Assembly (NCBI GenBank): GCA_049323655.1
Contig: JBMONO010000022.1
Location: 14,993-78,992 of the forward strand
Source: Thermodesulfobacteriota bacterium
GTDB lineage: Bacteria; Desulfobacterota; Desulfobulbia; Desulfobulbales; SURF-16
DNA: 64,000 nucleotides
Direction of reading: 5' to 3'
Positions within the stretch are counted from its first letter, which is position 1. Each line of letters begins with the position of its first letter. The notes beneath the pieces were generated by a model, which saw only the letters and a list, made by a program, of their open reading frames with translations, was not told the origin of the DNA and did no database searches. The translations under genes and the position numbers were made by a program. Shown here one piece after another: positions 4,966 through 64,000 of this stretch.

Positions 4966-4970
4966 GGCCG

Positions 4971-10460: not shown

Positions 10461-10467
10461 GAAGTTT

Positions 10468-10575
10468 GATTGGCCTGATTGGTCCGATTGGTCCGACTGG
10501 TCTGATTGGTCCGATTGGTCGGGCGATCTTACCAACAAGACCAATAAGACCAGTAAGACCAGTAAGACCAAAAAT
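10468..10575. repeat. inverted arrays of 9-bp tandem repeats filling the glmM-tlyA spacer
   Basis: Six units of GAYTGGYCN (10468-10521), a 9-nt spacer, then five units of ACCARYAAG (10531-10575). The two arms are imperfect reverse complements (ATTGGTC / GACCAAT). Confidence 0.85.
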
Positions 10576-16555: not shown

Positions 16556-17160
16556 TGCGCCCTCCGGATGCCGCGGCGATAAATGGCAAAAACGCCTGGG
16601 GCCTCGCGACGGATGCGGCCGACATCGCCGGCCAGCAATGCCTGCATGACCAGCCCCTGAATGGTGCCGATAAACAGGGTGACGGCGGCCTCCGTGTCCA
16701 GTTCGGCATCAAGATCACCGCACTGCTTGCCCCGGTCAACCACCTCTTTGAGACGCTCGCCATAGCAGCGAATGAGCCCTTGCGCCACCCGCCGGGGCGC
16801 CGACTCGCCGGTGCGTTGCAGTTCTCCGAACAGGATGCGGGGAATGCCGGGATACTCCGCGACAAAATCCACATGGGCCATGAACATCCCTTCCAGGGCG
16901 GCAAGCGGCGTTGCCGCTTGCGAAACCGCCCTGTCGACCCGCGCCAGCAGTCGCTGGGCGACCCACTCCATCACCGCCTGCAAAATGGCATCCTTATTGG
17001 CAAAATGGCGGAACAGCGCCCCTTGAGTCAGCCCCATCCGCCCGGCGATCGCCGCGGTGGTGATCTCGCTCGGGTTGCGCTCCCCGGCCAGCTCGATCAC
17101 CGCCGCCACCGTCACCTCCCGCCGCTCCTCCGCCGAAAGATACCTGCCTGTTGCTTCCAT
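16552..17160 (-). CDS. TetR/AcrR family transcriptional regulator
   Basis: N-terminal HTH (TTAAIAGRMGLTQGALFRHFANKDAIL). First gene of the efflux operon, overlapping the adaptor gene start. Confidence 0.85.
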   Translation of the reverse strand: MEATGRYLSAEERREVTVAAVIELAGERNPSEITTAAIAGRMGLTQGALFRHFANKDAILQAVMEWVAQRLLARVDRAVSQAATPLAALEGMFMAHVDFVAEYPGIPRILFGELQRTGESAPRRVAQGLIRCYGERLKEVVDRGKQCGDLDAELDTEAAVTLFIGTIQGLVMQALLAGDVGRIRREAPGVFAIYRRGIRRAQ

Positions 17161-22234: not shown

Positions 22235-22455
22235 TTAGTCTCATTAGTCTCATTTAGTCCTGTTGGTCTGATTGGTCTAATCAGCCAGACCAACCAGACC
22301 AATCAGACCAATCAGACCAACCAGACCAATCAGACCAACCAGACCAATCAGACCAATCAGACCAACCAGACCAATCAGACCAATCAGACCAACCAGACCA
22401 ACCAGACCAACCAGACCAACCAGACCAACCAGACCAACCAGACCAACCAGACCAA
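22226..22455. repeat. inverted arrays of 9-bp tandem repeats filling the spacer up to 10 nt before the next start codon
   Basis: About 6 degenerate TTGGTCTGA-like units (22226-22284), then 19 head-to-tail copies of YCAGACCAA (22285-22455, counted by hand). Confidence 0.9.
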
Positions 22456-22465
22456 CCGAACCGCC

Positions 22466-24049
22466 ATGCCAAGCCTGCTGCACCTTGCCGCCCCTCCTCT
22501 GCTCGGAGCCATCATCGGCTACACCACCAACTATGTTGCCATCAAAATGCTTTTCCGGCCCCTGCGGGCCTGGAAAATCGCCGGCATCCGCCTGCCGATG
22601 ACGCCGGGCGTCATCCCGGCAAAACGACACGAGCTGGCCCGCAACATCGGCGAGATGGTGGGTGATCATCTCCTTACCGGCCAGGACGTGAGCAGGGCCA
22701 TTGCCGGTGCGCAATTCCGGCAGAAACTGCACGAGCTCATCGCCGAACGGATCGCCTCCCTGCTGCGCAAAGATCTCGGGCCAATCGCCACTATCATCCC
22801 GGCGCGGTTTCACTCCTACTTCAAGGCCGGGGTGAAGATCATCCGGCTGCGCTTTATCACCTCCATGCACAGCTATCTGGACAGCCCGGATTTTGCCCGC
22901 ATCATCGACCGGGCCGCCACCACCCAACTCGACGCCATCATCAACAAGACCTTCAGCGCCCTCTTCCCCCGCGACAACCAGGACCATTTTTACCGGTTCC
23001 TCGAACAGACGGTGCATGAACTGCTGGCCAGCCCTGACACCAGAGAATGGATAGCCGCCGCCATCCGGGACAAAATCCATCTCACCCTGCGCGAGGGCCG
23101 CTCTCTGCATGATATCATCCCGCCCGAGATCAGCTGCCTGCTGCTCGACCGGCTGGAAGAGGAAACCCCAGCCCTGCTCGCCAGGGTCGCCGCCATGCTG
23201 GGCGAACCGGTCATGCGGGAAAAAATCGGCGACACCATTTGCCGCGCCGTGTCCGGACTCACCGCTTCCCTCGGCCCGCTTGCCGCCATGATGGCAAGCT
23301 TTGTCAGCGCGGAGACCATCCGCAGAAAGGTTGAGCAGTATCTGGCGGACAAGGGCGACGAGATCGGCGGCTGGCTGACGGACGAGGCCATTCGCCGGGA
23401 AACGGCGCGGATTCTCCGGCAGCGGGCGGAAAATTTTCTGCACCGCCCCCTTGCCGACCAGCTTGCCGGCATTGACCCGAAAAAAATCGACACCATCTCC
23501 CGCCAGTTCGGCGAACAGATCAGTCTGCTCCTGGCCCGGCCGTCCACCGCCGCGTCCGTTGCCGATCTCCTGCGCAGTGTGCTGGATTCCCAGGCGCAAC
23601 GACCGCTGGCGGCAATCATCGGCGACCTCTTCGGCCCCACTGCACTGGACCGCGGCCGACGCTGGACCGCGGCGGAGATCACCGCCCTCTTCCGTTCCAG
23701 CAAAATCAAGCAGATTCTCAACGATCTGGTGGTCGAGCTGCTGGAAAAAAAACTACTGGCCAAACCCATCGGCCGGCCGGCCGACCTCCTGCCCCGGAAG
23801 GTACAACTCTCCTTTGCCGACTATATCGAGCAACAGGTGGCCGATATCCTCGTCCGGGAGGTTCCACTGCTGGTCGATTCCCTTGACATCAAAAAGATCG
23901 TCACCCGCAAGGTCGATTCCCTCGACCTGTTGCGGCTCGAAGGACTGCTGATGAGCATCATGCAGGAACAGTTCAAGTACATCAATCTCTTCGGCGCTCT
24001 CCTCGGTTTTCTGATCGGACTCGCCAATCTCCTGTTGCTGGTCCGATAG
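22466..24049 (+). CDS. DUF445-family membrane-associated protein
   Basis: N-terminal [19 protein letters not shown] motif and C-terminal TM ([20 protein letters not shown]), as in DUF445/YheB-like proteins. Confidence 0.6.
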
Positions 24050-52449: not shown

Positions 52450-53766
52450 TCAGGGAATGGTGGCGGCCGACGGCCGCCGCACTTGCAGGATGACGGTCGC
52501 AGCGCCGACAAAAAGCACGGCACCGATCAGACAGGCAGCCGTATAGAGGGAGGGGTTGATGGTCGGCAGCCCTGCCGGCCCGGCCTCGCCCATCGCCGGC
52601 AGATTACCGGTGATCAGCCAGGCGGCGCGCAGGAAGACGAGAAACAGGACAAACAGCCAGAGCGTAAGGGCCATTACGGTTGCCAGCGGCCGCGACGGCG
52701 CCAGAACAAAGGAACGGAGCTGATAGCGGATCAGCGCCGGGGGCGGCCGCTCCCCTTCCTGGTCAAACAACTGCCGGAGCAGGGCCTGCTGGCTTACCGC
52801 CTGCTGGATGACCACAGCGCATTTGCCGACCAGGGCGACGAGCAGAAAGGGAAAGAGGGTGATGAGATCGGTCATCCTGAGCGGCAGCGGCCCGAAGGGG
52901 GACTCGATGGCCTTGAGCCGCTCGCCCAGCAGGGCGATCTGGGCCCGGGCAGCAGCGATCGCCTCCTTCAGGGCAACGAGCTTTTCTTCCTGGCTGTGCC
53001 GCTCGCGGCTGGTCGCGGCCAGCAGTTCACCGACCTTGTCGGCCAGCGGGGCAAAGGCCGCCTCCAGGGCGCCGCGCAGTTCGGCGGCCACGTCCACCTT
53101 GCCGCCGCTGCCGCCATAGGAGCGCCAGAAGTGCGGATCAATGGCGTCGATGGTTGCCTTGACCGTGTCGGTCGCCGTCCGGGAGATCTCTTGCAGCGCA
53201 CGGGCGTTGCCCTTCTCCCCCTGGTCGAGCAGCGCCACCGGCTTGACCACCCTCTCCTCCAGCTCCGCCAGCAAGCCGGCAAACCATCTATTGATATACC
53301 AGCCGACCCCTGCCTCGAAGTCGGTGATCTCGGCAGGCACGGCGATCATGTCCGGCGGGGCTTCCTGCTGCATATACTGATTAAACTGATAGACGGGCGG
53401 CATGCCGTCGGCAGGCTGACCGGCGCGGCCCGACCGGCGCCGGTCGAGGCTGGCGGCGATTTCCGGCAGGGCGCTGCGGAGCTGGTCCGGGAACCGCTGC
53501 AGGGCATCGCGTATTTGCTGGAGGGCGTCGGCAACGGACTGGTGCGCGACCCGGATTCTTTCCTCTTCCGCCAGCAGCGTTGTGATTGACTGCTCCATGG
53601 CCGGCAGGGCATCCTGCAATGCCTGCTCCTGCTTTTTATAGAGGAAATAGGGCTCGATGACGTAACAGTGGACGGCCAGGGCAAACAGGAGACCGATCAG
53701 AACAAGGCGGTTGATCTCCCGCACGCCGGCTCGATACTCATTGAGAACAGGATCAGCTGCCGCCAT
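52450..53766 (-). CDS. hypothetical membrane protein with central coiled-coil region
   Basis: One TM after MAAADP..., a long helical region, and three C-terminal TM segments. Start set at ATG 53766, preceded by GAGGAGGGAAG. No family recognised. Confidence 0.5.
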   Translation of the reverse strand: MAAADPVLNEYRAGVREINRLVLIGLLFALAVHCYVIEPYFLYKKQEQALQDALPAMEQSITTLLAEEERIRVAHQSVADALQQIRDALQRFPDQLRSALPEIAASLDRRRSGRAGQPADGMPPVYQFNQYMQQEAPPDMIAVPAEITDFEAGVGWYINRWFAGLLAELEERVVKPVALLDQGEKGNARALQEISRTATDTVKATIDAIDPHFWRSYGGSGGKVDVAAELRGALEAAFAPLADKVGELLAATSRERHSQEEKLVALKEAIAAARAQIALLGERLKAIESPFGPLPLRMTDLITLFPFLLVALVGKCAVVIQQAVSQQALLRQLFDQEGERPPPALIRYQLRSFVLAPSRPLATVMALTLWLFVLFLVFLRAAWLITGNLPAMGEAGPAGLPTINPSLYTAACLIGAVLFVGAATVILQVRRPSAATIP

Positions 53767-54096
53767 CTTCCCTCCTCGGCTTGCTCTTCCAGTTGTCCAG
53801 CGCAAAAGGGCGCACCGTCCCGATCTGGTGCACTTTTCTTCCGTTTTCGCGCGATGATTTTCCTCATCTCCTTCAAGGGTCACCCATTCATTCGTCATCG
53901 TCAAGCGAAAACTCCTGCCGACAGGGAAAACGGCGCTCCCGACGCCAAGGGGCAATCGGCTCACGCCGACGCCGGTAATGCCACCCTGGCCCACACGCAC
54001 TATTATTTTCTTTTTTTGAAAATTGATGGTCTCGCAAACCCGCAAACCATGGCAGGCGTGAAAGTGAAAACAACGAGTTACAAAACACGGACAGGC

Positions 54097-54120
54097 GGAA
54101 TCGTGGTTTTTTACGATTCC
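54097..54120. promoter_or_regulatory. 8-bp perfect inverted repeat in the divergent cas6 upstream region (possible operator or hairpin)
   Basis: ggaatcgt-ggtttttt-acgattcc. Single copy. Confidence 0.25.
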
Positions 54121-54268
54121 GACAAAATTTTGCTTTGCTTTTAGCGAATCCATTTGTTAATGATACTTTGCTAGTTAGGACAACACATTTTTCACGGAAG
54201 AGGTGACGACCTTCTCAACCCTCTTCTCCCCCGCCACTGAAAAACCCGGACCGGGCAAGGGGGTGTTC

Positions 54269-55216
54269 ATGCTGGTTGGCAGGTATCTTTTTCATTGCCG
54301 GTTCACCACAGAGGCGCGCTTGCCGGCCTTCAAGGGTTCCACCCTGCGCGGCGCCTTCGGCCACGCCCTGAAAAGGGTGGTCTGCGCCCTGCGCCGCAAA
54401 ACCTGCGCCGATTGCCTGCTCTCCACCTCCTGTGTTTATTCCCTGGTTTTTGAAAACCCGGCCGGTCCGCCGGACAAATCAGCAAACGACCTCCCGGCCA
54501 AAACCCTCGGTCGCCCTCATCCGTATGTGCTGCAGCCGCCCCTTGACCACCGCCGCGCCTACGAAACCGGCGAGGCCTTCTCCTTCGGCCTCGCCCTGTT
54601 CGGCCCGGCCAACGACTTCCTGCCCCATCTGGTCTACGCAGTGGAACGGATGGGTGAAACCGGCCTGGGCCGGGGCGGGAAAAACGGCCGGAGCCGCTTC
54701 ATGCTTGAGGCCGTGGAGAGCCGGGGCGTCCTGCTCTACGACGGCGCCGCCAAAACCCTGCGCCAGGGCCATGAATTGACCAGCCACGACCTGCAGCCGC
54801 CGGCCGCCGGACCGCTCGATTCCCTGACCGTTCGGCTCCTCACCCCGCTGCGGCTCAAACACCACAACCGGTTCCAGCAGACCCTGCCCTTCCACCTGCT
54901 GATCCGCGCCGCCCTGCGCCGCATCGCCGGCCTGGAAGAGGCTTACGGCCAAGGGGAGCCGCCCCTCGATTACCGGGGGTTGGTGAAACGAGCCGAACAG
55001 GTGGTCATTAGGCAGAGCGATTGCCGCTGGGTGGAGATCGAGCGCTACAGCAACCGCCAGCAGACCGGCATGCTGATCGGCGGCCTGCTGGGGGAGCTGG
55101 TCTATGAAGGAGAGATGGCCGAGTTCCTGCCGCTGCTGAAATACTGCGAGGTAACCCATCTGGGCAAGCAGACGGCGTTCGGGTTGGGGTGGGTGGAGGT
55201 GGGCCATGGGCTATGA
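54269..55216 (+). CDS. cas6: CRISPR-associated endoribonuclease Cas6 (Cys-cluster type commonly linked to type III loci)
   Basis: LPAFKGSTLRGAFGHALK, Cys cluster C-x6-C-x2-C-x5-C, HPYVLQPP, and the C-terminal glycine-rich loop HLGKQTAFGLG. Start set at MLVGRY, with GGGGG upstream. Confidence 0.8.
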   Translation: MLVGRYLFHCRFTTEARLPAFKGSTLRGAFGHALKRVVCALRRKTCADCLLSTSCVYSLVFENPAGPPDKSANDLPAKTLGRPHPYVLQPPLDHRRAYETGEAFSFGLALFGPANDFLPHLVYAVERMGETGLGRGGKNGRSRFMLEAVESRGVLLYDGAAKTLRQGHELTSHDLQPPAAGPLDSLTVRLLTPLRLKHHNRFQQTLPFHLLIRAALRRIAGLEEAYGQGEPPLDYRGLVKRAEQVVIRQSDCRWVEIERYSNRQQTGMLIGGLLGELVYEGEMAEFLPLLKYCEVTHLGKQTAFGLGWVEVGHGL

Positions 55217-55334
55217 GTCGTTCAGTAAAAAACGAAACGATCGCCTTTTTCTTGGAATTGATTTGGAAAGATTCCCCTGATTTAAGCTGAAATTTCCAAC
55301 TATGGCTTTGAATTATTAATTTTTTTTGCCAGAT

Positions 55335-57428
55335 ATGCCAAAAGATCTCGTGAACAACCCATTATATCGCTTCATCGAACTGGCCAGAGTGTTTCTTGAA
55401 GGAAGGGGGCTTCCCTTTCTGGGCGCTGGAGTCAGCATGAACGCCAGAGTAGTGGACGATGCGTCGCTCACGCCCACTGTTTCGTCCATGATAGAACTCC
55501 TGGTTGATGCTGTTTTTGATCGGCTCACCACTTGGGATCTTTGCGAAATTTCATACCAGCTAGGATCGTGTCCTTTTTTTTCCTGCACGTGCCCCTCCAG
55601 ACTTTGCAATTCGCCAGAATGCAAAGTGAATCCAGAATGTAAAGTGAATAAGGAAAAAATATCAAAAGAGACCTTTATTAACGGCATCAATGGCCAGCTT
55701 GGCAAACTGTGCGAAATCTTGATTCAGCGAGAATTGCTGAATCAGGCGGAAATTGTCTCAGTGCTTAGAATAAGGGACTATGCCGAACTGGCGCCTTGCC
55801 CGGCTCATTATTATCTTGCCTTCTTGGCTCAGGAAACCCTGGTCAATGAAATCATCACCACCAATTATGACTGCTGCCTGGAAAAAGCGATTTCGGCTGT
55901 GGCGGGCAAAGACTATCCGGCCGACAAACCAGATGAAAAGCAGGCGGTCAGCATCTTTAATCTGGATTCATATCGAGAATATGGAGCGCGCCGTCTCTTC
56001 CCCTATAATATTGCCACGGTACTGCGTATTTACAAAATCAACGGCTGCGCCGGCCAATTAAACAACAACCAAAGGCATGCCGACTCCATTCTTCTCACGG
56101 AACGCCAACTCCAGCACATGGATGACCGATCCTGGGCACGCGATCTGCTTTGCGACAGGGCCAGGTCACGTGCCATAGTTTTTTCCGGCTTCGGCTCGGA
56201 TGAGCCGCAGGTGCGCTTCACCGTTTTGCGCCTATTGGAGGAATTTTCACCGGATTCTCCGGGTAACAATCCGCAAAATGGGATTTGGTTGCATTTATAC
56301 TCTGAACAACGAAGCTTTTCCCAGGACCAAGTCATGCACAGCTTCTGGGGGAAAAGAGAAAGGATAGAGGCACATACTTTTTCCGGTAATGATGCATACA
56401 GAATAGACAAACTATTCAGTGAACAAGCCGGGGTTGGAAAAAATATATTCCCTGCCGATAGTTTCTGGCAGATAATTTATCAACTCGTTTTCCTTGCGTT
56501 GATCGACAGATATACCAGTCCGCCGTATCCTGGTTGGCGCTGGCTGACCGAGCTGGATGAGCAGGCAAGAGGTTTTTCAAGGAGGCACGAACTCTTGCGA
56601 TGGCTTGATCCGGCAGAGATCGGAAAATCCATACAAAGGAACCAAACAGATATTGATCTGAAGACTGATTCCCCTCCACTTCAGGTTGTTGGCTGGTTGA
56701 CCGGATTTACTGAAGTTATTCCGGGCACGCCGCCGGGAACGAAAATATCGGGTATCCCGCTTTCACTCTGGATTCGTTGTATTTTCGGCAAACCGAATCC
56801 GACAGCAGGGGTTGACTGGTACAATCCGCCGGAATGCTTTTATATCCCATTACTGCAACAAACCAATCTGGTCATCTCCCTCTTAATGTTGATTTGCTGC
56901 TTTAAGTACACGAAAAGAGAGCAGCCTCCCTTGCAAGTCAAATTTTATCCGACTGGAATGGCGGGGAAAAAACAGCCTCAATCGCCCCTTCTCTTTTTGG
57001 TCTTCCGTGGTCTTGAAATTCTATTGTGTTCTCAATTCACGCATACCTTCGCCGAACGAGGGGCACACTTTATAGCAAGTCGAACAATTCTTGCAGGTTG
57101 TTTCAATCACACTTCCTTTTTTGGTCCGGGTTTGCCAAGACAAAAATTACTGAGCCGCAATACCCTCCCCACTATCCCTAATGGGGTTGGGGAAATAAAG
57201 GTTCTCCGTTTCCTGCCCGCCCCGGTGCAGACGCTTATCCGTCTGGCATCAGCCGATGACTGCTCCGACGAAGAGCAGGATACGACCTGCCTCCAATCTT
57301 CTCAAACAATATCAGGGATGTCTTTTTTCGCCCGGGTCGTTGTTGACTTGGCAAACCGACCAACCAGGCCCCAAAGGCAGGCGAGGATAACGCGAATAGA
57401 TAATAAACAGGATAGAAATGATGAATGA
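55335..57428 (+). CDS. SIR2-like (SIR2_2 / defence-type) domain protein with a ~300-aa unassigned C-terminal region
   Basis: Rossmann motif PFLGAGVS, IITTNYD, and VFSGFGSDEP in the order typical of defence SIR2 domains. Cys-rich insert CPFFSCTCPSRLCNSPECKVNPEC. An alternative TTG start lies at 55326. Confidence 0.7.
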   Translation: MPKDLVNNPLYRFIELARVFLEGRGLPFLGAGVSMNARVVDDASLTPTVSSMIELLVDAVFDRLTTWDLCEISYQLGSCPFFSCTCPSRLCNSPECKVNPECKVNKEKISKETFINGINGQLGKLCEILIQRELLNQAEIVSVLRIRDYAELAPCPAHYYLAFLAQETLVNEIITTNYDCCLEKAISAVAGKDYPADKPDEKQAVSIFNLDSYREYGARRLFPYNIATVLRIYKINGCAGQLNNNQRHADSILLTERQLQHMDDRSWARDLLCDRARSRAIVFSGFGSDEPQVRFTVLRLLEEFSPDSPGNNPQNGIWLHLYSEQRSFSQDQVMHSFWGKRERIEAHTFSGNDAYRIDKLFSEQAGVGKNIFPADSFWQIIYQLVFLALIDRYTSPPYPGWRWLTELDEQARGFSRRHELLRWLDPAEIGKSIQRNQTDIDLKTDSPPLQVVGWLTGFTEVIPGTPPGTKISGIPLSLWIRCIFGKPNPTAGVDWYNPPECFYIPLLQQTNLVISLLMLICCFKYTKREQPPLQVKFYPTGMAGKKQPQSPLLFLVFRGLEILLCSQFTHTFAERGAHFIASRTILAGCFNHTSFFGPGLPRQKLLSRNTLPTIPNGVGEIKVLRFLPAPVQTLIRLASADDCSDEEQDTTCLQSSQTISGMSFFARVVVDLANRPTRPQRQARITRIDNKQDRNDE

Positions 57429-60135
57429 CGATGACCTCATACACTCTTTCGCCACCAACCTGCAAAAAGACGGCTGGCGTATAACTTGGGCAAAAATAAG
57501 CACGGTCGGAATTGGCCTTGAACTTGAAGCGCCAGGTGCAAGCTGGCCTGATTCTACCCCTGACAGCCTGCAACAGTTTGTCACCATTATCCGTGAAATC
57601 GCCATCCAATCCGACTTCCTGATGCCGATCCTTATCGGGTTTCCGAACATGTCGAAAGAAGCAACAAAAACCATAGCCCGCTGGCAGCGGCTTCAGGATT
57701 GGCATCAGGGAAACTTTTTTCTGGTACCATGCCGCGGTAAAAACGAAAACAAACCGGCCTTCGGACTTAAACCACTCCTGCATCCCCAGAAACCGGATCT
57801 GGCCGGGTATACGCCAAAAGCCTATACCATCGAACGTTTCATTAAGGAGTTGCAAGAGGAGCAAGATATACCGCAACATCTGGTAACGTCATTACTGTCT
57901 CACTTATACCAAGGGTTTAAATCTGCGAAACGTCTCACGGGAAGAAAAGGCTGGATATCATGGTGGGATGATTTTTTTCAGCAAAACCGGTCCGGAACAG
58001 GCCAAAAGAGCGATGAAAAGACAACCACTTCACAGAAAACCGAACTGCCTGAAGAAACCGAAAAGAGCTTCAATGATTTTGGCAGGGCAAAATCCATTTG
58101 TATTAAAAACTTCAAGGGGATAGGCAATTCAGGGCGCCTGGATCTCGATGCGGATATTGTTCTGGTTTCCGGGGCAAACGGCAACGGCAAATCAAGTTTC
58201 GTTGAGGCGCTTACCATTGCCCTCACCGGTTATCATCCCCACTTGGAAAATGATGTCCCTCAACCCCATCTTTTTCATTACAACAGCGACCATTTTTCCA
58301 TAGAACTAAAAGGCGATCAAAAAAATCTCCTTCGAGTCACGGGTCAAAATACCAATACCAACAAAGAGATAAACTTTTCCAACCGGCTGAGGATTAAAAA
58401 AAGGCACATTGAACAGGTTGAGCAATTTGCTGACGAAACCGATCCGTTACTGCTCTACCGGATGACCACATTCCTGCCGGATCACGTGGATATCCTCTTT
58501 GATGAAAAGGTTATCGGCGAGAAACCAAAACCCCACGACGACGATCCGATTTATGAGGACAGTCCGCCAAAGGCCCGTGCACTAACAGAGGTCTTTGTCC
58601 CGCTTCCCCTGCCGATCGATGCCCTGAGAAAGTCCCTTACCAAGGCAATTAAAGATATCGATGAGGAGATCGCGAAGCTCGGAAGGGAGACATCTTCCCT
58701 GCAAGAGCGGGCGACCAACATTGGCTCATTTCTGGGAAGCTTGATAAACGAACTGGAACAACGGGTCAACATGCTGCTTTCCCCCCTGGCAAGATCGCCA
58801 GTCCACTTTGCCCAGCCCCCGCAAGATTCCTCGCCGCAGTATCCTGATATCCTGAATATGTTTCTGGCAGAGCAACAGCAATTCTTGGGAAACTCACTCG
58901 GCCTCGATATTATGACATGGCCTGACACTATCAAGAATCTTCCCCGGCGACTTGAAGATTTGCTCAAAGATAAATTTCAGGACATTGATTACCAGAAACT
59001 TGAGCAGGAAAAAAAGGAGCTATCGAACAAGCTGCAGATCATTCAGGAAAAACTGGCGGAAAAACGCGAGGTAATCGAACCTGAACTCACCAGGCTGTTG
59101 GAAATCCTGCGCAGCCTTGGAAACCCTGAATTTCTTGCCATGTGCGAAAAGACACTTCGCCGGCGGGCCGGTCTCCGGCTCAATGATATCGCCACTGAAG
59201 TGGAGCTGGTAGACTCTGATAAGGCAAAACGATTCTGCCAGGTGCTCGATGAACTGATCGCCGACGAAACGTCCGTGCTTCGGGACAAGGAAAGGGAAGT
59301 CCACGAGAAGCTCAATGAAATTGAAAGCCGACTGGAACATGCGAGGCAACATAGTGAACAGCATGATAATCTCCAGCAACTGAAAAATTTTCTCGAAAAC
59401 GAAAACTCCAAAGACAACCTGGAGCTGACTGATAAATTTGTGAAGGAGTACAAAGAAAAGGCAGAGCGTGAAGAACGGCTTCGCCAGTTGAGAGAAACCC
59501 GGAATGAACGCTATCCGCTTCTTGCATTCTTGGATAAACTGGGAAGTCCTCCTGAAGATTTTCGCAAAATTTTTGAAGAGGTTTTCAACAATGTGCTCAA
59601 TCGATTCGCCCTGGCCGAGGGATTAAACCAGGCATCCATCCAAACCAATGAAAATGGAGGGTTGAAGATCGAGTCTGACGATAAAAGAGACCTGCCCTGC
59701 TTCTCCCTGGGACAGCGCTCCCAGATGGCAACGGCCTGGATGGTGACATCCAGGGAGTTGGCACGCAATTGCGAGGACATCCTGTTTCCGCACAAGATCC
59801 TCATTCTCGATGACTTATCCGCCACCTTTGACATGACCAACCTTCTGAGTCAGGCCATACTCTGGCGGCAACTTGCCTACCATCCTGACCCGCAGGAGCG
59901 ATACCAGGTGTTTATCGTTTCCCATCATGAGGAATTCACCGATCGACTGCTGGATCTGCTTTGCCCACCCGGAGAAGGCTGTTCCATGCGACTGTTGCGC
60001 TTTACCGATTGGGCGCCCAAACCAGGTCAAGGTCCCATAATCGAGTCGTACAAGGTGGAACCGTCGCCCAGCAACATGGAGCAGGCTGTCAAGGCTCTTG
60101 AAAACGGCTTCAACTGTCTGAAGGAGGTCTTATGA
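57418..60135 (+). CDS. SMC/Rad50/RecF-like ABC ATPase with long coiled coil and a ~225-aa N-terminal extension
   Basis: Walker A SGANGNGKSS (58171-58197). About 400 aa of heptad-rich E/K/L/Q sequence. Signature-like FSLGQRSQ, Walker B ILILDDLSATFD, and H-loop FIVSHHEEF. Confidence 0.75.
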   Translation: MMNDDDLIHSFATNLQKDGWRITWAKISTVGIGLELEAPGASWPDSTPDSLQQFVTIIREIAIQSDFLMPILIGFPNMSKEATKTIARWQRLQDWHQGNFFLVPCRGKNENKPAFGLKPLLHPQKPDLAGYTPKAYTIERFIKELQEEQDIPQHLVTSLLSHLYQGFKSAKRLTGRKGWISWWDDFFQQNRSGTGQKSDEKTTTSQKTELPEETEKSFNDFGRAKSICIKNFKGIGNSGRLDLDADIVLVSGANGNGKSSFVEALTIALTGYHPHLENDVPQPHLFHYNSDHFSIELKGDQKNLLRVTGQNTNTNKEINFSNRLRIKKRHIEQVEQFADETDPLLLYRMTTFLPDHVDILFDEKVIGEKPKPHDDDPIYEDSPPKARALTEVFVPLPLPIDALRKSLTKAIKDIDEEIAKLGRETSSLQERATNIGSFLGSLINELEQRVNMLLSPLARSPVHFAQPPQDSSPQYPDILNMFLAEQQQFLGNSLGLDIMTWPDTIKNLPRRLEDLLKDKFQDIDYQKLEQEKKELSNKLQIIQEKLAEKREVIEPELTRLLEILRSLGNPEFLAMCEKTLRRRAGLRLNDIATEVELVDSDKAKRFCQVLDELIADETSVLRDKEREVHEKLNEIESRLEHARQHSEQHDNLQQLKNFLENENSKDNLELTDKFVKEYKEKAEREERLRQLRETRNERYPLLAFLDKLGSPPEDFRKIFEEVFNNVLNRFALAEGLNQASIQTNENGGLKIESDDKRDLPCFSLGQRSQMATAWMVTSRELARNCEDILFPHKILILDDLSATFDMTNLLSQAILWRQLAYHPDPQERYQVFIVSHHEEFTDRLLDLLCPPGEGCSMRLLRFTDWAPKPGQGPIIESYKVEPSPSNMEQAVKALENGFNCLKEVL

Positions 60136-61325
60136 GTACACCACTGACCATTGAAATCGATCTTGCATTCACCACACCGGCCTTCCTGGGAGACGCCGAT
60201 CAGAAGGCCGCGCTGCGACCGCAATCATTCAAAGGGCTGCTTCGTTTCTGGTATAGGGCCTTGGACGGTTCTTTGGCTGAAAAAAAACAAAGGCGGGAGG
60301 ATGAGTTGTGGGGCGGAGCTGGTGATGATTTTGGTCAGTCCCCGATTCTTTTGCGACTGATTACCAGAAAACCGCCTCAAATCTACCAATGGCGCAGAGA
60401 ATCATTCACTCGCTTCACCGAGCGGGCCGGGAAGTATGATCGAAACGGCCTTCTCTATCTCGGCTTTCCTTTCACTCTGCGCGGAAATGAGCAAAGAAAC
60501 GGGCTGAGCCCCGGAACCTCTTGCACTTTTCGGGTCGTGATCCCCCGGCATAACCTCTTGGGGGAATGGCAACGAAAGGCGGTTGTTGCTACGCTATGGC
60601 TCTTCGCGGTACTGGGCTCATGCGGAAGCAGGAGTCGTCGAGGGTTCGGGAGCATGCAGGCCATGAACTGGCGCATACGCCATGGCAGCGAATCATGGCA
60701 AGATGTCTTCAACGCCTTGCCGAATCCGGGCACAATGAGCACTCCTTCAGCCTGGGATAACGGGATCAACACCGCGTTTGCGCTCTTTTATGGTGAGGGT
60801 GCGGAAGCTTGGTTTCCACGCTTTGACAATGCCGCCCATCCGCACCTCACCCATGATTTTTCGCCGATTATACTTAAGGGATTTCCGACCTGGGAGGAGG
60901 CCATGAACCATGGAGGCAGGAAGCTCCAGAATTTCCGGCAATGCCTGGAACCGGACAAATCCGCGGTGATCAAGCTGCTCGAAAATCCGCACCATGGCAC
61001 CTTCGCTCCGGGCAGGACCACCTTCGGGCTGCCGCTTAAATTTCAGTTCAGATCAAGAAAGGAACTGGGAAGCGTCACCTTTTATCCCCAGCGGCTCCAC
61101 CCCCTGGCTAAATCATCCGATCGCTTCGCCAGCCTGCTCTTTCTGAAGATCATACGGCTGGGAATGTCTTATCATCCGGTTTTTTTCCGTCTCCAGGGGG
61201 CACTCCCCGGGTTCAGGGCACCGCTGGGATGTGTGCTCACAAACAAAAAAATGGCTCTGAATCTGGACGACCCGCAAGAGAATATTCTTGACCATTTTCT
61301 TCAATCATTGGGAGGCGCGAAGTGA
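60132..61325 (+). CDS. cmr1: type III-B RAMP protein Cmr1
   Basis: N-terminal TPAFLGDAD...LRPQSFKGLLRFWYRAL, DELWGGAG and TTFGLPLKF (G-rich loop). Immediately precedes cas10/cmr2. ATGA overlap with the upstream ATPase gene, and AAGGAGG 5 nt upstream. Confidence 0.75.
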   Translation: MSTPLTIEIDLAFTTPAFLGDADQKAALRPQSFKGLLRFWYRALDGSLAEKKQRREDELWGGAGDDFGQSPILLRLITRKPPQIYQWRRESFTRFTERAGKYDRNGLLYLGFPFTLRGNEQRNGLSPGTSCTFRVVIPRHNLLGEWQRKAVVATLWLFAVLGSCGSRSRRGFGSMQAMNWRIRHGSESWQDVFNALPNPGTMSTPSAWDNGINTAFALFYGEGAEAWFPRFDNAAHPHLTHDFSPIILKGFPTWEEAMNHGGRKLQNFRQCLEPDKSAVIKLLENPHHGTFAPGRTTFGLPLKFQFRSRKELGSVTFYPQRLHPLAKSSDRFASLLFLKIIRLGMSYHPVFFRLQGALPGFRAPLGCVLTNKKMALNLDDPQENILDHFLQSLGGAK

Positions 61326-64000
61326 ACGAACAACAATTCTGGCTGCGGAAAATTCTTCAATTCCTTCATGATCCCCCAGGCAAACCTTTTGCTTTCTGGC
61401 CGAAAAGCGGCGGACATACGAACTTAGCAAAAAAAATATATACCGAGCTCTTGGGTAAACGGTATTCGTTCAGCAAGATACCAGACTTGATCGCCACCGG
61501 CGCGGATCGCCCCCTTCTCACCCTGCCGTGGGGACAAGAAGGGGGGCTGGGAACGCAATATTTCCACATTGACCCGACCGTCACCCATCCGCTCGCGAGA
61601 ACCCATCTGAAGCTTCCTTTGCCGGACAATGTAGAGGAGGTCAACAAAGATTTCATCAATGAGCTTGCCAAGTCTCAAGTAGATGCCGCTGCTGAAATGA
61701 AGTTGGCGAATATAGCGGATGCCGAAGAATTGCAAAGAGGTTTTCTTGCTCTGTGGCGGAGATTTCGCGAGGAAATTATCAATGCAAATAGCAAAAAACA
61801 ATCGTCCAGCCTGTGGGAATTCATGCCTGCCGACAGCCGCTGCCCGGATCATTCCATCTGGGAACACAACAGACTGGCAAGCGCGCTGTCTTTTGTTCCG
61901 CAAAAATTGTCGGACATGGACAAGAAGGCCCCGGATTACCCCTGGCTGTTCAGTTTCGCCCTCCAACCGGTACAGGAATTCCTCAGACAGGCACGCAAGA
62001 GCCAGGACCTCTGGGTAGGCTCCATGATCATCGCCGAACTTTCCTGGGCCGCCATGGAGCCGATCATTAAACGTTACGGGCCGGATGTCTTTGTTTATCC
62101 AGACCTCCGCGCTAATCCCAGGGCAGATATCTGGCTGTACGAAAATTACAAGGACGCTCTGCCCGACAAATACAAGAAAGCCCCGCCCGGTGACGACGCA
62201 CATCATCCAGCGACCAGGGCAGGCGTTATCCCCCATACCTTCATTGCCTTGCTTCCCTATGGATCCAAAGTTACAAGCAGCCATCTCCAGCCACTTGAAG
62301 AGTTGGCACAACTTGCAATTGACGGTGTCAGCAAGGCGTGGGAGACAATGAGCCAATACGTACAGAAATGGATGGAAAAGTCGGGCATTGTGCAGTCGAA
62401 GAGCAACCATTCCGCGTGGAACCAACTTTGGGACCATGGACACAAACACTGCCCCCTCACCCCGACCTGGGTGGCATCGCCTTGGCCGGTTGTTGAAAAA
62501 CAAGAACAATACTATTTCCCCGGCGGGGCGCTGCTGGCCCAGGACAGGGAAAAATTTTCTACACCTTCCCCAAGCGACGCCGAGGTCATCGGACGACGCA
62601 AGCAATTTCTGGGCACCTGGCTCCCGGAAAGCGTATGGACGCACTATGAGTATGTCCTGTCCGTTTTCGGCAGGACCAACAACAATCTCTTGGTGCACTC
62701 CGGTTTCGCTTACGGACCCGCGCATCACCGGGTTAAGGCGCGACACAGCCTGCGGCGGCGCTATCAAAGATTGTCTGAGTCTTCACCTGCCTCGTATGAA
62801 AAGTGCACGCTCTGTCATACCCGGCCCGCTTTACACGACGCTGTTGGTCATGAAGGAGGTAATTGCGAGAGCATCCGTGAAACCGTCCGGAAGCTGTGGA
62901 GAAACCGGGAACTCGATCCGGAGGAGCAAGGGAATGAACGGCTCTGCTCCGTCTGCAGCGTGGTCCGGTTTCTTGTCCGTTCCGAGTCGGTTCCATTTAA
63001 TACAACTTGGGTCGGTGCGGGACGTTCGCTTGACCAGGAAAAAGACAGGGATAACCGTCTGCGACCGAAGTTTCCTTCCACGGTAGCCATTGCCGCGCAG
63101 AACTATCTTGAAAAACTGGCAAGAGGATATGACGAATTCAGTGATCTGCTGGAGCGGATCGTCAACCTCCACGGAAGGTTGAATATCGACAAGTCGTCAT
63201 TTCCTAGCTCACTGCCGCGACTGGCCCGCGCACTCAAGACCCAGCCCATCGCTGAAGATTTTTTGAAGCTCGATCCGCAACTCGCCTTGTTTCCGGAAAT
63301 GGTGGAGAGCAAACGCGCCTCCGCCAAGGACAAGAACGACCCCAAGGTGCCTCTCTGGAATGAGCTGAAAAACACAGTCAAGCAATTGCGCGAACGTGCT
63401 GCTGAAAAAAAAATCGGCGCTATCCAGACTCAAATCGCGGTACTGGTCATGGACGGCGACGAGATGAGCAAGGTTCTTCTTGGTGATCCGGCCAGGATCA
63501 AATCCAAATGGAAGGATGTCATCCACCCTAGAATCGCGGATAAAATTCTGGAAAGCGACGTTTTCCGGGGCAGCGGCTGGCCGGAACTGCTCAACCTCTC
63601 CAGAACCTCCGGCCCGGCCTTGCAGGCCTTTATCAGCCGGGCACTGGCTGATTTCAGTCACCATATTGCTCCGTGGGTTGTCGAGCAGGAGTTTTCCGGC
63701 CGTTTGATTTATTGTGGCGGCGACGACCTGCTGGCCTTGCTGCCGGCCCGCGAAGCACTGGCGGCAGCCACCCGGCTCCAGGAACTGTTTTCCGCCGCCT
63801 GGGTCATCGATACCGAACCGGAGATGGAGCCTTGGTCCTGGTTACTCCAGAAAGGACATGGCGGACGCAATCCGGAAGATGCAGAAAATCGTTTTCATAT
63901 TCTCAAACCCACCGATGACCTCAAACAGCATTCAGGCCGCCTGTTGCCCATGCTCGGCAAGCATTGCAGCCTTTCCGCCGGGATCATGTACGGCCATTTC
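61322..64000 (+). CDS. cas10: Cas10/Cmr2, type III-B large subunit (3'-truncated by the window end)
   Basis: Translated by hand from GTG 61322; the frame is open for 893 codons to position 64000. FLHDPPGKP (HD motif, 61367-61372), PADSRCPDHSIWEHNRLASAL, zinc finger CTLC...CSVC, VLVMDGDEMS, and the cyclase motif YCGGDDLLAL (GGDD at 63716-63727). Confidence 0.9.
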   Translation, partial: MNEQQFWLRKILQFLHDPPGKPFAFWPKSGGHTNLAKKIYTELLGKRYSFSKIPDLIATGADRPLLTLPWGQEGGLGTQYFHIDPTVTHPLARTHLKLPLPDNVEEVNKDFINELAKSQVDAAAEMKLANIADAEELQRGFLALWRRFREEIINANSKKQSSSLWEFMPADSRCPDHSIWEHNRLASALSFVPQKLSDMDKKAPDYPWLFSFALQPVQEFLRQARKSQDLWVGSMIIAELSWAAMEPIIKRYGPDVFVYPDLRANPRADIWLYENYKDALPDKYKKAPPGDDAHHPATRAGVIPHTFIALLPYGSKVTSSHLQPLEELAQLAIDGVSKAWETMSQYVQKWMEKSGIVQSKSNHSAWNQLWDHGHKHCPLTPTWVASPWPVVEKQEQYYFPGGALLAQDREKFSTPSPSDAEVIGRRKQFLGTWLPESVWTHYEYVLSVFGRTNNNLLVHSGFAYGPAHHRVKARHSLRRRYQRLSESSPASYEKCTLCHTRPALHDAVGHEGGNCESIRETVRKLWRNRELDPEEQGNERLCSVCSVVRFLVRSESVPFNTTWVGAGRSLDQEKDRDNRLRPKFPSTVAIAAQNYLEKLARGYDEFSDLLERIVNLHGRLNIDKSSFPSSLPRLARALKTQPIAEDFLKLDPQLALFPEMVESKRASAKDKNDPKVPLWNELKNTVKQLRERAAEKKIGAIQTQIAVLVMDGDEMSKVLLGDPARIKSKWKDVIHPRIADKILESDVFRGSGWPELLNLSRTSGPALQAFISRALADFSHHIAPWVVEQEFSGRLIYCGGDDLLALLPAREALAAATRLQELFSAAWVIDTEPEMEPWSWLLQKGHGGRNPEDAENRFHILKPTDDLKQHSGRLLPMLGKHCSLSAGIMYGHF

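Follow-up and report, generated by a model that had tools for sequence, protein, structure and literature searches.

Comparison with Known Systems

The Sir2-effector variants of Type II Lamassu (ABC-3C) combine a SIR2-headed effector carrying a C-terminal docking domain with a small middle component and a coiled-coil SMC/Rad50-like ABC ATPase. The locus studied here is similar in all these parts. It lies in a window of 64,000 nt, the whole stretch of DNA that was analyzed, whose coordinates are used throughout and whose last base falls inside cas10. However, Lamassu stands alone and its LmuC is a separate protein, whereas the module in the window lies within a cmr operon, with its apparent LmuC fused to LmuB. 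Moreover, the trigger of Lamassu is purely innate, whereas that of the window module is presumably tied to RNA-guided targeting.

Type III-B systems with TIR-SAVED, Cat1 (CARF-TIR), or TSR1 share with this locus an intact Cas10 cyclase and the logic of an NAD+-consuming effector. These effectors are free-standing and activated by diffusible cyclic oligoadenylate, whereas in relatives of the locus the TIR and a SAVED-like domain are fused to Cmr6, and the SIR2/ATPase pair of the window has no CARF or SAVED sensor. In addition, Craspase (type III-E Cas7-11 with the Csx29 protease) and SPARSA, whose effector is a SIR2 NADase, couple a guide-RNA sensor to an attached abortive-infection effector, and they serve as conceptual precedents for a sensor and an effector coupled directly, with no diffusible messenger between them. 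However, neither has a sequence relationship to the window locus or an SMC-like ATPase, and both are coupled via demonstrated protein complexes, whereas in the window it is the operon structure that suggests coupling. Cas_RecF, an SMC/RecF-like ABC ATPase, recurs beside crenarchaeal type III cassettes (Shah et al. 2018, PMC6546367). Unlike the window ATPase, it has about 330 aa, no long coiled coil, and no SIR2 partner, its partners being unrelated small proteins and CARF genes (PMC6546367). Thoeris (ThsB TIR and ThsA SIR2-SLOG) resembles the relatives of the locus in having TIR and SIR2 in one operon, and among solved structures ThsA comes closest to the window SIR2 domain. It differs in that the window SIR2 has no SLOG, the TIR of the relatives sits on a CRISPR subunit, and an SMC-like ATPase is added.

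Gene Organization

ORF calling gave the order cas6, a 118-nt gap, a SIR2-like gene, an SMC/Rad50-like ABC ATPase gene, cmr1, and cas10, all on the forward strand. The cas6 gene (54269..55216, +) encodes the crRNA-processing endoribonuclease (PADLOC Cas6, 1.6e-99; Pfam CRISPR_Cas6, 5.9e-18) and opens the CRISPR island; the genes 5' of it, including TraB/GumN, YhbY, PEP_mutase, and SurE, are housekeeping genes. An alternative GTG start exists at 54203, and the ATG start was favored because the PADLOC Cas6 alignment starts at residue 25 of the GTG-started form. The gap (55217..55334, +) is AT-rich and contained no RNA family in Rfam and no terminator-like site in the promoter/terminator scan.

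The SIR2-like gene (55335–57428, 697 aa) and the ATPase gene (57418–60135, 905 aa) overlap by 11 nt, the SIR2 stop TGA (57426–57428) falling within the ATPase start ATGATGAATGA. The ATPase–cmr1 junction, ctgAAGGAGGtcttATGAgt, presents the cmr1 Shine–Dalgarno sequence (AAGGAGG), located within the ATPase gene, followed by an ATGA stop/start overlap. The cmr1–cas10 junction, GGGAGGcgcgaaGTGAac, is a GTGA overlap. The cmr1 product (60132..61325, +; 397 aa) is a RAMP protein (PADLOC Cmr1, 1e-13; Pfam RAMPs, 3.5e-12) and scored 27.8 bits against TIGR01894, slightly below the cut-off of 28.65. The first-pass annotation had described this gene order with its coordinates, the gap, the three overlaps, and the position of the Shine–Dalgarno sequence, and re-reading of the ORFs and junctions base by base was in agreement at every position. 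No terminator-like site was found by the sequence scan of the window at any junction of the operon, including that between the overlapping ATPase and cmr1 genes, where the first-pass annotation would have counted a terminator against its reading.

The SIR2 Protein

The SIR2 domain (aa 1–345; 55335..56369, +; Pfam SIR2_2, 3.8e-13) carries the motifs GAGVS (aa 30–34), TTNYD (aa 175–179), and GFGSDEPQ (aa 285–292), and its NAD-pocket motifs were invariant in the family alignments. The AlphaFold model of the protein reached a pLDDT of 86.9 and a pTM of 0.90. The best Foldseek matches of the domain were ThsA, KomC, SPARSA, DSR2, and Avs5, and the domain is predicted to have the fold of defense SIR2 proteins. 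In the motif K-I-N-G-C (aa 234–238), Asn occupies the position of the canonical sirtuin catalytic His, and this Asn (K-I/V-N-G-C) was invariant throughout the SIR2 family alignment. Because the canonical His is replaced, the protein is a putative "NADase", and NAD+ hydrolysis by the usual SIR2 mechanism is not assured. The earlier SIR2 assignment is supported by the SIR2_2 and Foldseek matches.

The C-terminal domain (aa ~346–697; 56370..57428, +) consists of helices and then a beta-sheet in the predicted structure, as has been described for the C-terminal domains of long Lamassu LmuA. It is homologous to that of the SIR2 proteins of stand-alone cassettes, and the columns L372, A374, D375, W378, and Y503 are common to the Cmr-linked and stand-alone proteins. 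The SIR2 protein gave no CARF, SAVED, or SLOG signal and no PADLOC match, and SIR2_2 was its only Pfam domain. The first protein is LmuA-like, with an N-terminal SIR2 effector and a putative C-terminal docking domain.

The ATPase

The N-terminal domain of the ATPase (aa 1–191; 57418..57990, +) is homologous to the ~210-aa middle protein of stand-alone cassettes, with which it aligns full-length (BLASTP: Neomoorella, E 2e-8; Vibrio, 2e-3). It is a folded alpha/beta domain in the predicted structure and was kept in all fused ATPases of the alignment. The solved LmuC was not recovered by sequence profiles. Judging from homology, the N-terminal ~190 residues appear to be the third Lamassu component, LmuC. 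A flexible linker (aa ~192–221; 57991..58080, +), with a pLDDT <50 at residues 195–211 and no secondary structure, joins this domain to an LmuB-like SMC/Rad50-type ABC ATPase (aa 222–905; 58081..60135, +). The alignment of the window ATPase with the Neomoorella ATPase starts at residue 18 of the latter.

The ATPase matched Pfam AAA_23 (4.2e-15) and SMC_N (1.3e-07), and its best defense model was PADLOC LmuB (8.4e-19). Walker A is GANGNGKSS (aa 252–260), the signature motif S763-G765-Q766, Walker B LILDD (D798, D799), and the H-loop H836; all four were invariant in the fused-ATPase alignment. The Walker B agrees with the hhhhDD form of "long" Lamassu (PMC12663957). The coiled coil spans ~330 aa (aa 398–727), and the motif check found no CxxC zinc hook in it, unlike long Lamassu, which has been described with one. 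In the Foldseek search, Rad50 was matched at 1e-12 and the solved Lamassu LmuB chains ranked 3, 4, 6, 7, and 9; no LmuB chain was among the 60 PDB matches listed in the sequence profile search. The SIR2 protein and the ATPase both look functional. The likeness to Lamassu proposed earlier was supported by the LmuB model and the solved LmuB chains, but not by the PADLOC LmuA and LmuC models, which matched neither the SIR2 protein nor the ATPase. "Lamassu-like" is therefore a safer name than "Lamassu".

Cas10 and the Cmr6 Fusion

The cas10/cmr2 gene (61322..64000, +), of which 892 of ~1050–1090 aa lie in the window, showed TIGR02577 (147.9 bits; cut-off 79.4), Cmr2_N, and palm2 domains. Its product contains an N-terminal HD motif (LHDPP), zinc-finger cysteines, the palm-1 MDGD, and the GGDD cyclase motif, and the HD and GGDD motifs were kept across at least 10 loci in the motif comparison. 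The window stops within cas10, so cmr3–6 and the array of this genome lie out of view, and no CRISPR array was found within the 64,000 nt. In relatives, cmr1–6 are complete and arrays have 7–16 repeats, so the downstream cmr genes, whose loss or pseudogenization the first-pass annotation would have held against its reading, are intact there.

Cmr6 is fused to a TIR and a SAVED-like domain in 9 related loci. This Cmr6-TIR fusion forms only 14 protein clusters database-wide, on contigs that also carry SIR2 matches. The TIR matched ThsB_TIR with up to 39 bits, and its invariant Glu falls in the same column as the "W..YE"/"W.DE" motif Glu in AbTIR and Cat1, which we take to be catalytic. The SAVED matches were below the Pfam cut-off (best 19.9 vs 26.2 bits), and the PDB profile search gave nothing for this domain. 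One locus (L031) has a Cmr6 variant without TIR. The genome of the window presumably carries cmr3–6 and the Cmr6 fusion as well.

Linkage and Origin

In 18 of 18 independent related loci, namely the fused-ATPase loci whose sequence extends past the ATPase stop, cmr1 lies directly downstream of the ATPase, and those extending further all continue with cas10 and cmr3–5. The pairwise identities of the ATPase and Cas10 were correlated (r = 0.80, Mantel p = 2e-4, n = 9), and the same locus (L002) was the nearest relative of the window for both gene sets. The suspicion that such a pair might never be linked to type III genes elsewhere is thus answered by its close homologues, and the view that these genes are not chance neighbors in a defense island agrees with the same order in independent loci and with the co-diversification. 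In the tree, the Cmr-linked ATPases formed one clade with a long stem among unfused relatives. Low GC of these genes recurs in nearly all loci; it is intrinsic to the captured genes, and the capture is old and co-diversified with the Cmr genes, not a recent insertion. The Cmr-linked clade has few members and a narrow taxonomic spread.

The distant SIR2 homologues (V. cholerae, Neomoorella, Koleobacter) occur in cassettes of a SIR2 protein, a ~210-aa protein, and a 720–780-aa ATPase, with no cas genes near them. These cassettes follow the Lamassu LmuA-LmuC-LmuB layout, and PADLOC LmuB was also the best defense model for their ATPases.

Proposed Function and Alternative Explanations

With a probability of about 0.7, a type III-B lineage acquired the SIR2/ATPase genes in a single capture, as a three-component defense module of Lamassu-like (ABC-3C) type, and has passed them on within the cmr operon ever since. 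The first-pass annotation had offered a captured Lamassu-like cassette and a new type III accessory module as separate readings; both hold and are the same thing. Its remark that no type III system of this architecture had been described was in line with our search, in which no published description was found. The locus most likely functions as a type III-B system whose SIR2 effector arm derives from Lamassu and, as far as the sequence indicates, probably acts on NAD+.

If the module works like the Lamassu complexes that have been solved (PMC12663957), the SIR2 protein would be kept inactive as a monomer, bound at its C-terminal domain by a dimer of the ATPase with its LmuC-like domains. It would be set free by ATP together with a nucleic-acid cue and would then oligomerize, act on NAD+, and arrest the infected cell. 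The Cmr complex may supply or gate this cue in the present lineage; the likeliest cue would be DNA ends or lesions that the Cas10 HD nuclease makes at the transcribed target, and docking directly onto the Cmr1/Cmr6 end of Cmr would be the alternative. In relatives with a readable cmr6, a second NAD+-consuming arm may exist, in which the SAVED-like domain would sense cyclic oligoadenylate made by the intact Cas10 cyclase, sensor and TIR both being fused to Cmr6.

It is possible, though unlikely, that the pair is a self-sufficient Lamassu-like innate system sharing the promoter and mobility of the cmr genes without biochemical coupling to Cmr. Its relatives are built as stand-alone cassettes, all Lamassu-type parts are kept, including the SIR2 C-terminal domain common to stand-alone members, clustering of defense genes is known, and the conserved synteny could reflect co-regulation alone. 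However, mere co-location in an island normally shuffles across such divergence, whereas the position between cas6 and cmr1 and the stop/start overlap onto cmr1 are fixed in all 18 loci, which span Cas10 identities down to about 43–50%. The co-diversification with Cas10, the junctions without terminator-like sites, the monophyly of the Cmr-linked clade, the conserved fusion, and the co-occurring Cmr6 remodeling also argue against it.

A Thoeris-type cascade, in which cyclic oligoadenylate would switch the Cmr6 TIR on through the SAVED-like domain and the TIR would make an NAD-derived messenger activating the SIR2, with the ATPase as scaffold or regulator, is improbable. The ThsB_TIR match with the conserved Glu, the ThsA match of the SIR2 domain, and the presence of TIR and SIR2 in the same operons are consistent with it, and the Asn in place of the catalytic His is compatible with an unusual role. 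However, no recognized ligand-sensor domain, SLOG included, is present in the SIR2 protein, the same SIR2 family with its C-terminal domain occurs in stand-alone cassettes lacking TIR, and the variant in L031 has none either. A decayed or mosaic remnant, in which the pair would have inserted into a cmr operon already degenerating and no part would function, is very improbable. The window has no array and ends before cmr3–6, and genes are split in some relatives (cmr1 in L002, cas10 in L003, and SIR2 in L009 and L012), but all five window ORFs are intact with conserved catalytic motifs, and relatives have complete cmr1–6 and arrays. Conservation across deep divergence indicates purifying selection. 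The captured, Lamassu-like module suggests that adaptive and innate immune machines have been joined into one unit in a rare type III-B lineage.

Organization of the Operon in the Window

The operon was read from an ORF map and at the base level, and its genes were identified by profile searches. It opened with cas6 (54269-55216; PADLOC Cas6, 1.6e-99), which was separated by an AT-rich gap of 118 nt from the SIR2-like gene (55335-57428), encoding 697 aa with a Pfam SIR2_2 match (3.8e-13) at residues 175-325 only. The ATPase gene (57418-60135) encoded 905 aa matching AAA_23 and SMC_N, and its best defence model was PADLOC LmuB (PDLC03859, 8.4e-19). It was followed by cmr1 (60132-61325; PADLOC Cmr1, 1e-13; Pfam RAMPs, 3.5e-12) and by cas10/cmr2, which started at 61322 and ran past the window end (TIGR02577, 147.9 bits, cut-off 79.4; Pfam Cmr2_N, 1.8e-26; palm2, 1.5e-14). 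Against TIGR01894, Cmr1 scored 27.8 bits, slightly under the cut-off of 28.65; its gene lay immediately 5' of cas10. The base-level read placed the ATPase ATG 11 nt ahead of the SIR2 stop. The cmr1 start shared ATGA with the ATPase stop and had AAGGAGG eight bases ahead of it, and cas10 started in a GTGA overlap with cmr1. The coordinates proposed by the first-pass annotation were all reproduced, and the identities it had given to cas6, SIR2, the ATPase, cmr1 and cas10 were confirmed in five of five cases.

The genes 5' of cas6 were of the housekeeping type (TraB/GumN, YhbY, PEP-mutase family and SurE), and the island therefore begins at about 54.2 kb. A 567-aa ORF with host-like GC, on the minus strand at 52450-54153, lay between these genes and cas6 and had no Pfam match. 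Neither a CRISPR array nor an Rfam match was found within the 64-kb window. An internal terminator or promoter dividing the operon was rejected, because terminator-like sites in the window were not enriched (13 against 15.1 expected) and none was at an operon junction.

The GC content of the pair was 0.49, compared with 0.60 for the window. Recent horizontal insertion was rejected as the explanation, since the GC of the SIR2 and ATPase genes was below that of the cmr genes in nearly all related loci, over a host GC of 0.29-0.65. Accordingly, the dip is a property of the genes. Elsewhere in the window, two tandem arrays of one 9-nt unit were seen about 12 kb apart and in opposite orientation, both at or close to gene boundaries. 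The array at 10459-10571 contained about 6 copies of GATTGGTCC and then about 5 copies of ACCAATAAG; it overlapped the 5' end of ORF 10453-11307, just past ORF 9111-10460. The array at 22241-22498 contained about 19-20 copies of CCAGACCAA and lay between ORFs 20552-22234 and 22466-24049.

Linkage to Type III-B Genes in Related Loci

Among 5.8 billion clustered proteins, the SIR2 protein had about 19 full-length relatives with 34-47% identity, and the ATPase had seven in addition to its own entry (P0121), the source of which was a Thermodesulfobacteriota MAG. In total, 33 related loci (L001-L033) were assembled from context look-ups and two collection scans, and their gene content was taken from a tblastn map with reference proteins, plus L033. 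The first-pass annotation had treated the pair as a part of the cmr operon, to be judged by counting its neighbours in homologues. The count bore this out: cmr1 was directly 3' of this type of ATPase in all 18 independent loci reaching past the ATPase stop (L001/L010, L002, L003, L008, L009, L011, L012, L017-L020, L022-L026, L028 and L033), and none of the 18 was without it. After cmr1 came cas10, cmr3, cmr4 and cmr5 wherever the contigs of the relatives allowed, and cmr6 was also present in the relatives extending far enough; the window itself stops inside cas10. The SIR2 gene was present in nearly every locus reaching far enough upstream. No SIR2 match was obtained in L020, which extends only about 640 nt upstream. 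Furthermore, relatives had CRISPR arrays: L001 had 16 repeats, L003 had 7, and the end of L031 had at least 3. Both L001 and L003 also had cas2 and cas1 genes or fragments.

Several local features were confined to single loci or subclades. In L002, cmr1 was in two pieces (4685-5674); in L003, the N-terminal (HD) part of Cas10 was a separate ORF of 148 aa (16264-16710); and in the near-identical L009 (1-2048) and L012 (7933-9983) the SIR2 gene was in two parts, of 429 and 254 aa. Such breaks may be genuine, or they may stem from frameshifts or assembly errors. At 7558-9263 of L003, beside the array, cas2 and a fragment of cas1 were neighboured by a reverse-transcriptase gene (RVT_1, 277 aa), a hint that some of the lineage acquires spacers with the help of an RT. 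In addition, a divergent gene pair was located directly 5' of the SIR2 gene, on the minus strand, in L001 (6168-9733) and L012 (4021-7628). It encoded a CHAT protease (about 672 aa, weakly matching TPR-S) and a calcineurin-like phosphoesterase (about 516-529 aa), and it was found in the subclade of Thermodesulfobacteriota bacterium B35 and Desulfobulbaceae and not in the window.

Origin of the Pair and Relation to Lamassu

Past the top 19, the SIR2 matches spanned the N-terminal half of the query only, and the contexts checked for these distant matches showed one cassette type throughout, without cas genes. Its three genes, seen in V. cholerae, Neomoorella glycerini and Koleobacter, encoded a SIR2 protein (about 610-650 aa), a small middle protein (about 207-217 aa) and an SMC-like ATPase (about 720-780 aa). 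The V. cholerae SIR2 cluster was on at least 1,000 contigs, and the cassette, extremely common in this species, had index entries in 5,471 collection blocks. The V. cholerae copy (L004/L005, 8001-12620), in which the middle protein has 207 aa and the ATPase 723 aa, was flanked by a LuxQ-type sensor kinase region and by cobyrinate/molybdate-transport genes. It was distinct from DdmABC and was not mentioned in one review of V. cholerae defence islands. The stand-alone cassettes share the gene order LmuA-LmuC-LmuB with type II Lamassu, described as ABC-3C (PMC12663957; bioRxiv 2025.06.23.660979).

Alignment of the window ATPase with the components of these cassettes revealed a fusion. Residues 19-105 of the ATPase aligned with the middle protein of Neomoorella (E 2e-8), and residues 72-102 with that of Vibrio (E 2e-3), with the motif QDWH.G.F.L common to the ATPase N-terminus and the middle proteins, and residues 212-905 aligned to the Neomoorella ATPase, starting at its residue 18. 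In a joint alignment, the whole length of the middle proteins matched the fused ATPases in their N-terminal domain, and this domain was conserved in all of the fused forms. In the AlphaFold model (pLDDT 86.0, pTM 0.76), residues 1-191 were predicted to fold as an alpha/beta domain and 195-211 to form a disordered linker; past the linker came an ABC head lobe, a coiled coil of about 330 residues and a second head lobe. The window ATPase is thus a fusion of an LmuC-like domain to an LmuB-like ATPase, and the pair is homologous to a Lamassu-like three-gene cassette.

An exhaustive search of 1.84 billion representatives returned 383 relatives of the ATPase. About a dozen matched from the N-terminus of the query, as the fused form would, and most of the others were 650-780 aa long and matched only from about residue 222. 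In a crude neighbour-joining tree on the ATPase core, the Cmr-linked forms grouped as one long-stemmed clade set among unfused relatives; P0155, P0160 and P0266, three further long ATPases, fell outside it. Across the loci, identity to the window was 49-59% for Cas10 and 31-39% for the ATPase. The pairwise identities of the two proteins were correlated (r = 0.80, Mantel p = 2e-4, n = 9) in a crude test whose statistic is somewhat inflated by the near-duplicate pair L009/L012. L002 was the closest relative of the window for both proteins. The results demonstrated a single origin of the pair and its co-diversification with Cas10. The fused form is rare. Of about 185,000 species representatives, a set that does not include the window genome, only three carry it, namely B35 and two Desulfobulbaceae MAGs. 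The B35 locus sits on a contig of 2.95 Mb, which should make cloning easier.

The likeness to Lamassu was uneven. The PADLOC LmuB model matched the stand-alone ATPases as well as that of the window, and nearly over the full length for Neomoorella. Foldseek of the ATPase returned Rad50 first and LmuB chains (9hqx, 9uxh and 9hqu) at ranks 3, 4, 6, 7 and 9; no LmuB chain was among the 60 matches listed for the ATPase profile against the PDB. Walker A (GANGNGKSS), the signature S-G-Q, the Walker B DD and the H-loop were invariant in the fused and unfused ATPases. Walker B was LILDD in the window, and DD was found in 62 of 62 family members, like the hhhhDD consensus of long Lamassu (PMC12663957). 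In contrast, the coiled coil of long LmuB is reported to carry one CxxC zinc hook (PMC12663957), and this family was without it (0/62). Short-class LmuB may have no zinc hook, so that the missing CxxC bars the long class and not Lamassu overall. The PADLOC LmuC model did not match the window or Vibrio proteins, no PADLOC model of any kind matched the LmuC-like N-terminal 190 aa, and a profile of the LmuC-like sequences found nothing among the solved Lamassu chains; LmuC is described as too diverse for sequence methods (PMC12663957). The LmuA model did not match the window or Vibrio proteins, and the Neomoorella SIR2 protein was marginal (1.8e-4). The earlier 'Lamassu-like' reading stood. A Lamassu-like three-component family was upheld by the LmuB model, Foldseek, cassette order and the fusion, whereas canonical Lamassu was not, in view of the LmuA and LmuC models and the zinc hook. 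The pair was filed as derived from the former, with no subclass given. Equivalence with the crenarchaeal accessory ATPase Cas_RecF was rejected, because size, partners and taxa differ.

Features of the SIR2 Protein

The AlphaFold model of the SIR2 protein had a pLDDT of 86.9 and a pTM of 0.90. With the N-terminal half, Foldseek found ThsA (8btp, 2.2e-9, probability 1.00), followed by KomC, SPARSA, DSR2 and Avs5; a PDB search with the profile of the SIR2 family gave Sir2Af2 and KomC fragments and nothing else. The motifs GAGxS, PAHYY, TTNYD and GFGSxEPQ were invariant or nearly so across the family, as were G30, A31, G32, S34, N177 and D179, and the match to Sir2Af2 ties the family motifs to the NAD pocket. 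The protein therefore resembles defence SIR2 NADases in its SIR2 Rossmann fold and NAD-pocket motifs. In canonical sirtuins and ThsA, a strand is followed by HG, with the catalytic His. This family differs from the defence NADases in being without that His: the invariant motif K-I/V-N-G-C (residues 234-238; window 56034-56048) puts Asn236 at its position, an equivalence drawn from the motif order and a predicted strand at 230-234, not from superposition. The Asn-for-His change was seen in the whole family, including the stand-alone members. NAD+ consumption would thus be a family-based assignment, and the reaction may be an unusual one, differing from that of known defence SIR2 NADases. The invariant change is a separate enzymological question.

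The C-terminal domain of about 350 aa was predicted as helices followed by a beta-sheet, and long LmuA C-terminal domains are described likewise (PMC12663957). It had conserved columns common to the Cmr-linked and stand-alone members, and Foldseek of the protein gave no match covering it. In its layout the protein fits LmuA, whose N-terminal effector domain is followed by a C-terminal domain docking on LmuB/LmuC. No CARF or SAVED match was obtained for the SIR2 protein or the ATPase with Pfam, NCBIfam or PADLOC. A hidden CARF, SAVED or SLOG sensor in the C-terminal half of SIR2 or the N-terminus of the ATPase was rejected on the missing profile matches and the unlike folds. In this respect, the pair is different from the cyclic-oligoadenylate ancillary effectors, which have CARF or SAVED. 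In addition, an 18-nt tandem duplication was observed inside the SIR2 gene (window 55614-55649). It encodes PECKVN-PECKVN, in a Cys-rich low-confidence loop (residues about 80-100, pLDDT 57-59) whose length varies among homologues.

Cas10 and the Cmr6 Fusion

In the window, Cas10 kept the N-terminal HD motif LHDPP, the zinc-finger cysteines, the palm-1 MDGD and GGDD. The HD, MDGD, GGDD and zinc-finger motifs were kept in every complete relative (at least 10 loci), and on this basis Cas10 plausibly has both nuclease and cyclase activity.

In the relatives, Cmr6 was about 680-720 aa long. A RAMP domain, complete up to its G-rich loop, was followed by a TIR domain and then, at the C-terminus, by a conserved domain of about 260 aa. 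The fusion was located in L012 (20238-22292), L009 (12396-14450), L010 (19966-22017), L026 (7940-10000) and L033 (10001-12169), and occurred in nine loci with L002, L003 (via the collection protein P0141), L020 and L028; Cmr6 of L031 was a version without TIR. Only 14 clusters of it were found among 5.8 billion proteins, as rare as the SIR2 clade, and the family occurred on the same contigs as SIR2 matches (56,942-bp and 408,592-bp contigs). The TIR profile aligned to the NAD+ hydrolase AbTIR and the CRISPR-associated TIR NADase Cat1. The invariant TIR Glu aligned with the Glu of their 'W..YE'/'W.DE' motif, which we take to be the catalytic residue. For the C-terminal domain, sub-threshold Pfam SAVED matches were obtained in 5 of 10 members (best E-value 8.4e-5), and the best full-length protein scored 19.9 bits against a cut-off of 26.2, over profile positions 18-190 of 190. 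A PDB sequence search with this domain found nothing. The domain is probably SAVED-like.

Furthermore, a second SIR2-type gene and a metallo-beta-lactamase-fold protein were observed 3' of cmr6 in L031 (7965-10139) and L033 (12147-14445), as one protein of 724 aa in the former and two of 276 and 454 aa in the latter. The metallo-beta-lactamase-fold protein, a feature of one subclade, had faint Apyc1-like matches. This unit may be a cyclic-nucleotide-degrading or a further NAD-linked accessory.

Proposed Mechanism and Alternatives

A model of the mechanism was drawn from solved Lamassu complexes (PMC12663957). By analogy, an ATPase dimer with its LmuC-like domains would hold one SIR2 monomer through the SIR2 C-terminal domain, and a nucleic-acid cue together with ATP would release it. 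The freed effector would then oligomerise and become active, presumably on NAD+. The favoured cue would be DNA ends or lesions made by the Cas10 HD nuclease at the transcribed target, because such a cue uses a known Lamassu input and a known type III output. In a more novel route, the module would dock directly onto the complex at its Cmr1/Cmr6 end; the translational coupling onto cmr1 and the remodelling of Cmr6 hint at this. In a parallel arm, cyclic oligoadenylate from Cas10 would reach the SAVED-like sensor and switch on the TIR NADase on Cmr6. On the boldest reading, the Cmr complex would be a single supramolecular effector: the ATPase dimer with sequestered SIR2 docks at the Cmr1/Cmr6 end, a matching viral transcript and not free DNA ends licenses ATP-dependent SIR2 release and oligomerisation, and the TIR/SAVED-like unit of Cmr6 answers cyclic oligoadenylate in parallel. 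We give this reading a chance of about one in four.

Other explanations were considered. The pair might be an independent tenant merely sharing the operon, as its relatives do occur in cassettes of their own; against this, its placement between cas6 and cmr1 was invariant and came with overlapping codons. A Thoeris-like cascade from TIR to SIR2 would draw on two domains that the relatives do encode. However, the SIR2 effector of Thoeris has SLOG/STALD and the SIR2 protein here was without SLOG (Pfam, PADLOC), and the TIR of Thoeris is a separate sensor protein, whereas that of the relatives is part of Cmr6. The locus might also be a decayed mosaic; as judged from the sequences, the ATPase, SIR2-pocket, HD and GGDD motifs and, in the relatives, the TIR motif were all intact.

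Comparison with Known Systems and Significance

Type III CRISPR systems are known to work by the nuclease of Cas10 and by cyclic nucleotides, which diffuse and activate CARF/SAVED effectors. Known Lamassu-type SMC systems belong to innate immunity and sense DNA ends or structures without a guide. The present locus is a hybrid of a type III-B and a Lamassu-like system, each of a kind known already. The first-pass annotation knew of no described type III system with this architecture, and a full-text literature search, with most subscription-journal papers outside its coverage, likewise gave none: no paper linked Lamassu, LmuB, SMC or SIR2 to cmr/Cas10 operons, and no Cmr6-TIR fusion was described. 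The main census of type III effectors did not mention SIR2, SMC, Lamassu or Cmr6 (PMC11229360), and a survey of type III accessory genes contained only the unrelated crenarchaeal Cas_RecF of 330 aa (PMC6546367). In the phylogenomic paper on Lamassu, 'CRISPR' occurred four times, with no CRISPR linkage in the passages covered (PMC12663957).

If the single-effector reading were true, the locus would hold the first SMC-family machine under the control of an RNA guide, and a type III effector switched by protein coupling instead of a diffusible messenger. The Cmr6-TIR-SAVED-like fusion would be, as far as found, the first ancillary effector within a Cmr backbone subunit. A lineage with both systems welded into one translationally coupled, co-evolved operon would be a natural experiment, in which adaptive, sequence-specific sensing is wired to an innate SMC-based suicide module. 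With the upstream event programmable by crRNA, it could be used to search for the trigger of Lamassu-type complexes in cells, and to ask whether type III complexes control effectors by direct coupling.
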